Source: Candidatus Campbellbacteria bacterium (GTDB lineage: Bacteria; Patescibacteriota; Minisyncoccia; Phycocordibacterales; JABAAK01). Taken from it: 63,499 nucleotides of DNA. Under the pieces are notes generated by a model. The model was given only the letters and a program-made list of their open reading frames with translations. It made no database searches and was not told the DNA's origin. The stretch is from positions 1-63,499 of the forward strand of contig JAPPQH010000005.1 in NCBI GenBank assembly GCA_028817035.1, read 5' to 3'. A program made the translations under genes and the position numbers. This document shows positions 11,705 through 13,160 of this stretch, one piece after another; the stretch's first letter is position 1; every line of letters starts with the position of its first letter.

Positions 11705-13160
<1,456 letters not shown>

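Follow-up and report, generated by a model that had tools for sequence, protein, structure and literature searches.

The 63,499-nt stretch of DNA analyzed here (the window), which derives from a sponge metagenome, encodes a 16S rRNA whose 3′ end lacks the anti-Shine-Dalgarno (anti-SD) core CCUCC. Since the 16S rRNA has lost this core, translation initiation would be largely independent of mRNA-rRNA pairing, and we consider it likely that this sponge-associated CPR bacterium without an anti-SD starts its genes in this way, using three classes of gene. The absence of the core, its distribution within the clade, and the motif statistics given below are direct observations.

The 16S rRNA gene was recognized as a bacterial SSU rRNA by its RF00177 score, which far exceeds the gathering score of 50. 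No 23S gene lies beside it, i.e., the rRNA genes are unlinked. The gene and its 3′ elements are as follows.

11707-13163, minus strand: 16S rRNA gene, 1457 nt, full-length match to RF00177 (model positions 1-1533, 1356.6 bits)
11720-11743, minus strand: helix 45, an intact 10-bp stem with a GGAA loop, placed by alignment and 100% paired and invariant in 8 sequences
11707-11719, minus strand: single-stranded 3′ tail GAACAUAUCCUGA, which replaces GAUCACCUCCUUA according to the Infernal alignment

The 3′ end was checked by a separate Infernal alignment of the last 254 nt, which placed the model residues GAUcAC followed by CUCCUUu opposite GAACAU followed by AUCCUGA in the window, with a posterior of '*' throughout. 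The last ten positions (11716-11707) read CAUAUCCUGA, compared to CACCUCCUUA in E. coli and in the Rfam consensus, and the conserved tail GAUCACCUCCUUA that follows helix 45 in RF00177 is GAACAUAUCCUGA in the window. A sequence-only reading of the same DNA had quoted this minus-strand end exactly, and its claims that the CCUCC core is missing and that helix 45 and the GGAA loop are intact both held in the alignment, where all ten pairs are retained. Its further statement that the trailer contains no CCUCC also proved correct, as no CCTCC occurs within 167 nt downstream of the gene. The mature 3′ end is assumed, from the alignment, to lie at this tail; apart from the tail, the molecule is an ordinary 16S rRNA.

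Two changes were noted at the decoding site. The U1406-U1495 pair is C-G (G1495 at 11749 and C1406 at about 11832, minus strand), and C1409-G1491 is A-U; both are common to all related 16S genes (L002-L018) that include the 1406 region, which read GCCCGCCAAG ... AAGGCG. These positions (1406/1495 and 1409/1491) lie within the aminoglycoside-binding region. In the tail, the Era-binding motif GAUCA is changed to GAACA alongside the anti-SD core. Era recognizes GAUCA together with CCUCC, the bound sequence being GAUCACCUCC, and era has been lost in most CPR (PMC10582724). A 2025 study finds rplA and der absent from Paceibacteria, and era absent from most of them, and points out that 16S 3′ termini are often annotated incompletely (PMC12641178). 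Neither rplA nor era is found in the 63-kb window, an absence that is uninformative in a genome fragment.

One genome per GTDB species was searched for relatives, the query being the decoding-site strand in its unusual AAGGCGUAACAAGG form plus the helix 45 that comes after it. This signature retrieved 16 loci, of which 15 are labelled Patescibacteria, Paceibacterota, Kaiserbacteria, Campbellbacteria, or Saccharibacteria. The remaining one (L015, JASGCN010000002.1) is a MAG labelled 'Alphaproteobacteria bacterium' with a Patescibacteria-type 16S, the same signature, and no anti-SD; its label is probably a binning or labelling error. CCTCC was absent after helix 45 in every signature locus (16/16), and the 17 related 16S genes obtained by adding one untitled metagenome contig all lack the anti-SD. 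Their tails group into the families GGAAUAAUUCAAG..., GGAUUUAGUCAAAUGACA..., and GGAAUGUAA..., with Infernal placing the model end there. Both the CCUCC core and the GAUCA motif are lost in the window and in all retrieved relatives sharing the C1406-G1495 signature. No 23S gene adjoins the 16S gene at any relative locus. On the basis of its 16S sequence, the window is assigned to sponge-associated Patescibacteria (CPR; Paceibacteria/Parcubacteria-like). Its 16S gene shares just 79-86% identity with 11 full-length counterparts from Patescibacteria and thus represents a separate, deep lineage. A 31-mer specific to the window lineage had zero matches in metagenome scans, and a broader helix 45 pattern recovered one metagenome contig, identical in this region to L017, with no closer relatives.

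To evaluate SD usage, 53 gene starts were annotated, with Pfam support for the main genes; where a start was ambiguous, it was curated on the basis of domain boundaries and the first ATG. Duplex energies were calculated for positions -20 to -3 against the canonical tail and the window's own tail, with shuffled upstream regions as controls. The best duplex with the canonical tail had a median energy of -0.9 kcal/mol over the 53 starts, and the share at or below -4.5 kcal/mol (15%) was the same as in the shuffles, from which own-tail energies were also indistinguishable. These comparisons agree with the earlier view that general SD pairing is unused. An SD is absent at 48/53 gene starts, and a GGAGG-type motif precedes only 5/53 genes. 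An 'alternative SD' complementary to the window's own tail (GGAUA/AGGAU/CAGGA) was considered and rejected, being neither enriched before ORFs nor better than shuffles in energy.

A promoter-like signal was found instead at many first genes of transcription units. TANNNT ends 6-7 nt before the ATG at 12/35 first genes, compared to 3.5 expected, and none of 2,000 composition-preserving shuffles reached 12; among AT-matched non-start ATGs, only 5.6% have TANNNT at this distance. When starts were chosen blind to the motif as the first ATG of each ORF, the count in the window was 12/58 (4.8 expected), and in the flanks of the relatives' 16S genes it was 9/43 for clade I (2.6 expected) and 5/32 for clade II (1.3 expected). 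A -35 match of at least 4/6 accompanies 8/24 hexamer cases against a 16% background (p = 0.03), and TG extensions of the -10 occur at uvrA, lysS, rplS, the antiporter gene, and hyp89. All 12 hexamer genes start with ATG, although start calls prefer ATG, and their duplex energies are above -4.5 kcal/mol except for the borderline DUF3179 (-4.9) and CaCA (-4.6) genes. Representative starts are listed below.

631-666, minus strand: DUF1360 gene start, TTGACA-17-TATATT-6-ATG, -35 match 6/6
8090-8103, minus strand: ftsE start, ATG at 8090, TAAAAT ending 7 nt upstream, -35 TTTACA (5/6)
28499-28512, minus strand: lysS start, TGnTATACT ending 7 nt upstream, checked for hexamer and spacing
49494-49507, minus strand: rplS start, ATG at 49494 (chosen from the Pfam L19 match), with TGnTATTAT ending 7 nt upstream
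55055-55067, minus strand: Ca/cation antiporter gene start, TGgTACAAT ending 6 nt upstream
57897-57921: divergent starts of ruvX (ATG 57897, minus strand) and a 166-aa ORF (ATG 57921, plus strand), TATAAT ending 7 and 6 nt upstream, respectively

The -10 element is therefore present 6-7 nt upstream of the start codon above chance, as in leaderless genes. From this spacing we infer leaderless transcription at the hexamer genes. In the proposed scheme, the first class would comprise about a third to half of the first genes, in which a sigma-70-type -10 ends 6-7 nt (range 4-9) before the ATG. Transcription would begin at or a few nucleotides from the start codon, and the resulting leaderless or near-leaderless mRNAs would be bound directly via their AUG. 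The sequence-only reading had proposed this signature from seven examples, all of which were correct in hexamer and spacing (ftsE, lysS, rplS, the start at 16812, uvrA, ruvX with its ATG at 57897, and the start at 57921); the lysS it cited was also correctly identified, at 26973-28499. Its general claim of SD-less first genes breaks down at five genes with perfect GGAGG elements. The leaderless reading is statistically supported for about a third of the first genes and was over-generalized. A generic sigma-70 scan was dropped as a genome-wide test, as it showed no overall enrichment (44 matches vs 37.5), and the positional test was used in its place. Some -10-like hexamers occur before internal genes too, as expected with AT-rich start regions.

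Several further features of the window were recorded. The start codons of ruvX and the 166-aa ORF are 23 nt apart, and their overlapping TATAAT hexamers are nearly palindromic; the RuvX domain is fused in frame with a VTT/DedA-type membrane domain in one 364-aa ORF (56806-57897, minus strand). An rluA-like gene starts 11 nt after tRNA-Val (50268-50280) and a 75-aa ORF starts 21 nt after tRNA-Ala (16812-16834, minus strand), so tRNA 3′ processing could be the source of near-leaderless 5′ ends for these two genes. An 86-nt tRNA-like gene (17474-17559, minus strand; Rfam tRNA, 48 bits; ARAGORN 'His, anticodon ATG') contains an ATGCC/GGCAT stem enclosing about 22 nt, which suggests either that the anticodon region carries an insertion or that a type II tRNA was mis-called. 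A type IV pilus cluster (36051-44555 and 17844-18338, minus strand) comprises a pilM-like gene, three unknown genes, pilB, pilT, which overlaps pilB by 11 nt, pilC, and two pilin genes. Together with a Big_12/FG-GAP protein of more than 1,678 aa (58449-63485) that runs past the window end, this cluster is typical CPR surface equipment.

Internal operon genes form the second class of the scheme. The 18 internal genes lie -11 to +29 nt from the previous gene, 14 of them within 9 nt, and none carries an SD, as the sequence-only reading had stated. Their 20 upstream bases contain 45% A and 11% G, compared to 32% and 23% in coding sequence, and T occupies position -1 in 61%. Start regions in general contain 43-45% A and 11-13% G, and over all starts the minimum free energy of positions -20 to +20 is -2.3 kcal/mol vs -4.5 kcal/mol for in-gene windows (p = 4e-9). 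The internal start regions are consistent with structure-based start selection and coupling. In the proposed scheme, genes of this class, internal or tightly packed with gaps of -11 to +9 nt, A-rich, G-poor, weakly structured, and with T at -1, would rely on structure-based start selection and on termination-reinitiation coupling.

The third class consists of five accessory genes in which AAGGAGG-type elements are found 7-8 nt before the start, with energies of -10 to -15.5 kcal/mol against the canonical tail.

9963-9978, plus strand: SD aacaaaGGAGGaaaagagtATG of the glutathione-reductase-like gene (9976-11433), -11.6 kcal/mol against the canonical tail
9665-9680, minus strand: SD tttttaGGAGGaaaacgatATG of a 171-aa membrane protein gene (start 9667)
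13404-13419, plus strand: SD aacaaaGGAGGtatccaagATG of a Cys-rich repeat protein gene (start 13417), -14.5 kcal/mol
1639-1654, minus strand: SD aaaaaaGGAGGtgtttgttATG of a 304-aa protein gene (start 1641), -15.5 kcal/mol, with a TGgTATAAT promoter about 55 nt upstream
19561-19650, minus strand: TTGACA-17-TATTAT promoter (match 11/12), leader of about 50 nt, and SD ttttaGGAGGaagtgttGTG of a 172-aa protein gene

At the last locus, the SD region of the gene starting at 19563 (19561-19575, minus strand) reads gttttaGGAGGaagtgttGTG, and the promoter is the top sigma-70 match in 18.5 kb. Two of the SD genes lie about 50 nt behind strong promoters and are thus leadered; there, the -10 overlaps an upstream in-frame ATG. 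Against the window's own tail, the SD motifs of four genes reach only -4.6 to -6.5 kcal/mol, and that of the 304-aa protein gene reaches -10.5 kcal/mol through a fortuitous bipartite match. GGAGG followed after 5-9 nt by ATG or GTG and an ORF of at least 150 codons gave five events, compared to zero for each of four GGAGG permutations with similar total counts.

Three of the five SD genes flank the 16S gene. Within the gene for the Cys-rich protein, a repeat of about 90 nt occurs three times in tandem (13520-13730, plus strand; aaagatGGAGGgaatactgcgcaca...). The ORF at 9976-11433 beside the 16S gene was considered as a candidate lysS and rejected, since it encodes a glutathione-reductase-like flavoprotein. 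The SD genes are likely of foreign origin. Their GC3 is above that of the remaining genes (Mann-Whitney p = 0.005), and the 485-aa product of 9976-11433 has named homologues only outside CPR (proteobacterial, myxobacterial, and eukaryotic), at about 40% identity. As no sampled sequence exceeds about 40% identity to it, a recent transfer is not demonstrated, and the idea of a recent horizontal transfer relic is supported by GC3 but not by the homologues. In addition, SD-like motifs exceed chance in the anti-SD-less relatives (3/43 and 5/32), where they precede genes for hypothetical secreted or membrane proteins; the AAGGAGG pattern was seen in L004, L005, L006, L009, L013, and L016, and in the orthologue pair of L004 and L005 aaggagaagccATG is kept while flanks and N termini have diverged. 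The specificity of the motif, its presence in relatives, and the conserved aaggagaagccATG together argue against simple relic decay. These five leadered accessory genes with a perfect AAGGAGG may be foreign carry-over or may be read by a route that dispenses with the canonical tail.

The region downstream of the 16S gene is itself structured, and its elements are as follows.

11617-11706, minus strand: structured 3′ trailer, with hairpin 1 (11680-11701), hairpin 2 (11651-11666, GAAA loop), and a conserved element resembling a pseudoknot (11617-11650)
11564-11595, minus strand: trailer strand of the pre-16S processing stem, pairing with the leader at 13167-13195
13167-13195, minus strand: leader strand of the pre-16S processing stem, complementary to the trailer strand
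11495-11528, both strands: bidirectional intrinsic-terminator-like hairpin closing the 16S unit

The leader-trailer stem is present in 9/9 relatives tested. Its 5′ strand ends a few nucleotides before the 16S gene in the window and in these nine relatives, and its 3′ strand begins 100-135 nt after helix 45 in eight relatives, with L005 and L015 differing. The stem encloses about 105 nt of conserved, covarying trailer, laid out as hairpin 1 (variable, usually with a GNRA loop), a GUCAAUU linker, hairpin 2, and a conserved 60-nt pseudoknot-like element. Among 8 sequences, 95% of cells are paired compared to 35-43% with slid partners, and 9 pairs change on both sides, figures that come from few sequences and from a structure derived from those same sequences. 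An Rfam E-value scan of the trailer returned only chance-level matches, far below gathering scores. The 16S gene and the glutathione-reductase-like gene converge on two terminator-like hairpins at 11459-11528, one of which is bidirectional; the 16S unit is apparently monocistronic.

A search of RNA runs for coding sequence of this organism found none. Metatranscriptome contigs from sponge and groundwater match only conserved 16S words or related lineages and indicate that the trailer is transcribed in relatives. Two of them run from the 16S body into the trailer, X25 for at least 51 nt (depth 167) and X27 for at least 84 nt (depth 10.3 vs 16.4 in the body), while a sponge RNA contig ends 6 nt after GGAA; such contigs cannot separate precursor from mature RNA, nor do they give a depth profile. 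Hairpin 1 contains CCUCC/GGAGG or CUCCU/AGGAG in some relatives, CCUUC or CUCUC in others, and CUUACGC in the window. Because its sequence varies in this way, hairpin 1 is not a conserved anti-SD.

These observations bear on whether the anti-SD is really missing. An assembly or alignment artefact has next to no chance of explaining the aberrant tail, and we found no point in its favor. A Logan contig of SRR10996920, an independent assembly, spans the 16S tail with zero differences, the Infernal alignment is unambiguous, and the same loss is seen in the 17 relatives. Related 16S contigs from runs X2 and X4, one of which is a second sponge metagenome, differ only at 11708/11709, with tails ending in ...CCUAA and ...CCCAA; since these contigs from two other samples keep CATATCC (CAUAUCC in the RNA), the tail is not an assembly artefact. 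Nor is it a chimeric join, as the 5′ leader and 3′ trailer form a long complementary stem and both flanks thus belong to one precursor. If the genome had a further 16S gene outside the window that carried a canonical tail, its ribosomes would be heterogeneous, and the canonical type would read the SD-led genes. The strong SDs, the coverage of only 63 kb of the genome, and the unlinked rRNA genes of the clade leave some room for such a copy, yet we regard it as extremely improbable: the assembly runs across the 16S gene into unique sequence at either end, as would be unusual if the gene were repeated, and 48/53 genes, including all housekeeping genes seen, have no SD. CPR genomes generally carry one rRNA set. 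Moreover, the loss of the anti-SD in Parcubacteria has been reported per genome (PMC9297842). It is also very unlikely, if slightly less so, that the anti-SD has been relocated, with the mature 16S rRNA retaining part of the ~105-nt trailer and the pyrimidine tract of hairpin 1 acting as a masked or displaced anti-SD for AAGGAGG mRNAs. The conserved, covarying trailer within the processing stem, the extension of the RNA-derived contigs X25 and X27 into it, and the enrichment of SD-like motifs in anti-SD-less genomes would fit this idea; however, hairpin 1 covaries freely, the window trailer has no CCUCC, L016 combines a CCUUC hairpin with an AGGAGG-led gene, the metatranscriptome contigs may contain precursor rRNA or DNA, and the sponge RNA contig stops 6 nt after GGAA. 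A broader version, in which the trailer of anti-SD-less Paceibacteria would persist at the 3′ end of the mature 16S rRNA as an extension specific to the lineage and occupy the platform site of SD/anti-SD pairing, and AAGGAGG mRNAs would be recognized via this extension or another anti-SD-free route, is speculative and improbable in our view.

The remaining alternative concerns the hexamers rather than the tail. The mRNAs might be leadered and initiate in an SD-independent, Bacteroidota-like 'Kozak-like' A-rich manner, the -10-like hexamers being by-products of AT-rich, unstructured starts. In favor of this, A and T make up 73% of the A-rich upstream regions, and internal genes, for which leaderless transcripts are impossible, share this composition and low structure. 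Internal genes also show some enrichment of TANNNT 4-9 nt before their starts (7/18 vs 3.0), and the generic promoter scan was unenriched overall. Even so, we judge this explanation unlikely, because the sharp peak at 6-7 nt is unmatched by shuffles or AT-matched non-start ATGs, and because -35 matches and TG extensions exceed background, with one perfect TTGACA-17-TATATT-6-ATG. 

The loss of the anti-SD in a Parcubacteria subgroup was previously published, and the window adds a sponge lineage to the reported cases. Just 48% of Parcubacteria were found to have the motif; lineages that lack it overlap with the group devoid of uL1, in which SD helices are presumably not formed (Tsurumaki 2022, RNA 28:1041, PMC9297842). 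Given this precedent, the finding is of lesser novelty than the sequence-only reading implied. The window combines a Patescibacteria affiliation with the lack of CCUCC(U) at the 16S 3′ end; like the published subgroup, it is a CPR 16S without a findable CCUCCU at its 3′ end, and its 16S gene is short and unlinked. It differs in being sponge-associated and only 79-86% identical to the retrieved relatives. Gene starts, leaderless signatures, residual SDs, and trailer structure were not analyzed in the Tsurumaki paper, and our literature search found no paper linking CPR to leaderless initiation or analyzing CPR gene starts.

SD/anti-SD pairing is among the most conserved features of bacterial translation, and lineages without an anti-SD reveal how initiation can proceed without it. 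The window offers sequence-level evidence of substitute gene-start features, i.e., promoter-proximal ATGs at first genes and A-rich, unstructured starts at internal genes. In such genomes, gene-finding programs and ribosome-binding-site models that presuppose an SD will place starts wrongly. Two puzzles are also raised, namely the persistence of AAGGAGG without an anti-SD and the structured 3′ trailer as a possible part of the mature ribosome.

Among known systems, Bacteroidota have few SD genes, A-rich and unstructured starts, and a handful of genes that keep an SD, with CCUCC kept but sequestered by ribosomal proteins; SD-independent initiation has reportedly been studied in this phylum in Flavobacterium johnsoniae by the Fredrick laboratory. 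The window likewise shows rare SDs, A-rich, unstructured start regions, and a few genes retaining an SD, but here the anti-SD sequence itself is gone, and the positional -10 signal points to leaderless transcripts. Deinococcus and Actinobacteria (GeneMarkS-2 'group C') have a -10 about 6-7 nt upstream of the AUG at first operon genes, with no SD there, while they keep a canonical anti-SD and use SDs at leadered genes. The window shares the -10 spacing at SD-less first genes and differs by its missing anti-SD. The mammalian mitochondrial ribosome also combines an SSU rRNA lacking an anti-SD with leaderless mRNAs, and CPR have lost ribosomal proteins in a pattern similar to the mitochondrial one (PMC9297842); however, mitochondria are organelles whose very few mRNAs arise from polycistronic processing, with no sigma-70 promoters. 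Finally, rare natural losses or mutations of the anti-SD are also scattered among reduced genomes (Lim et al. 2012 and Amin et al. 2018, both cited in PMC9297842). Those cases are isolated and mostly from endosymbionts, whereas the loss seen in the window is a clade-wide trait in environmental CPR.
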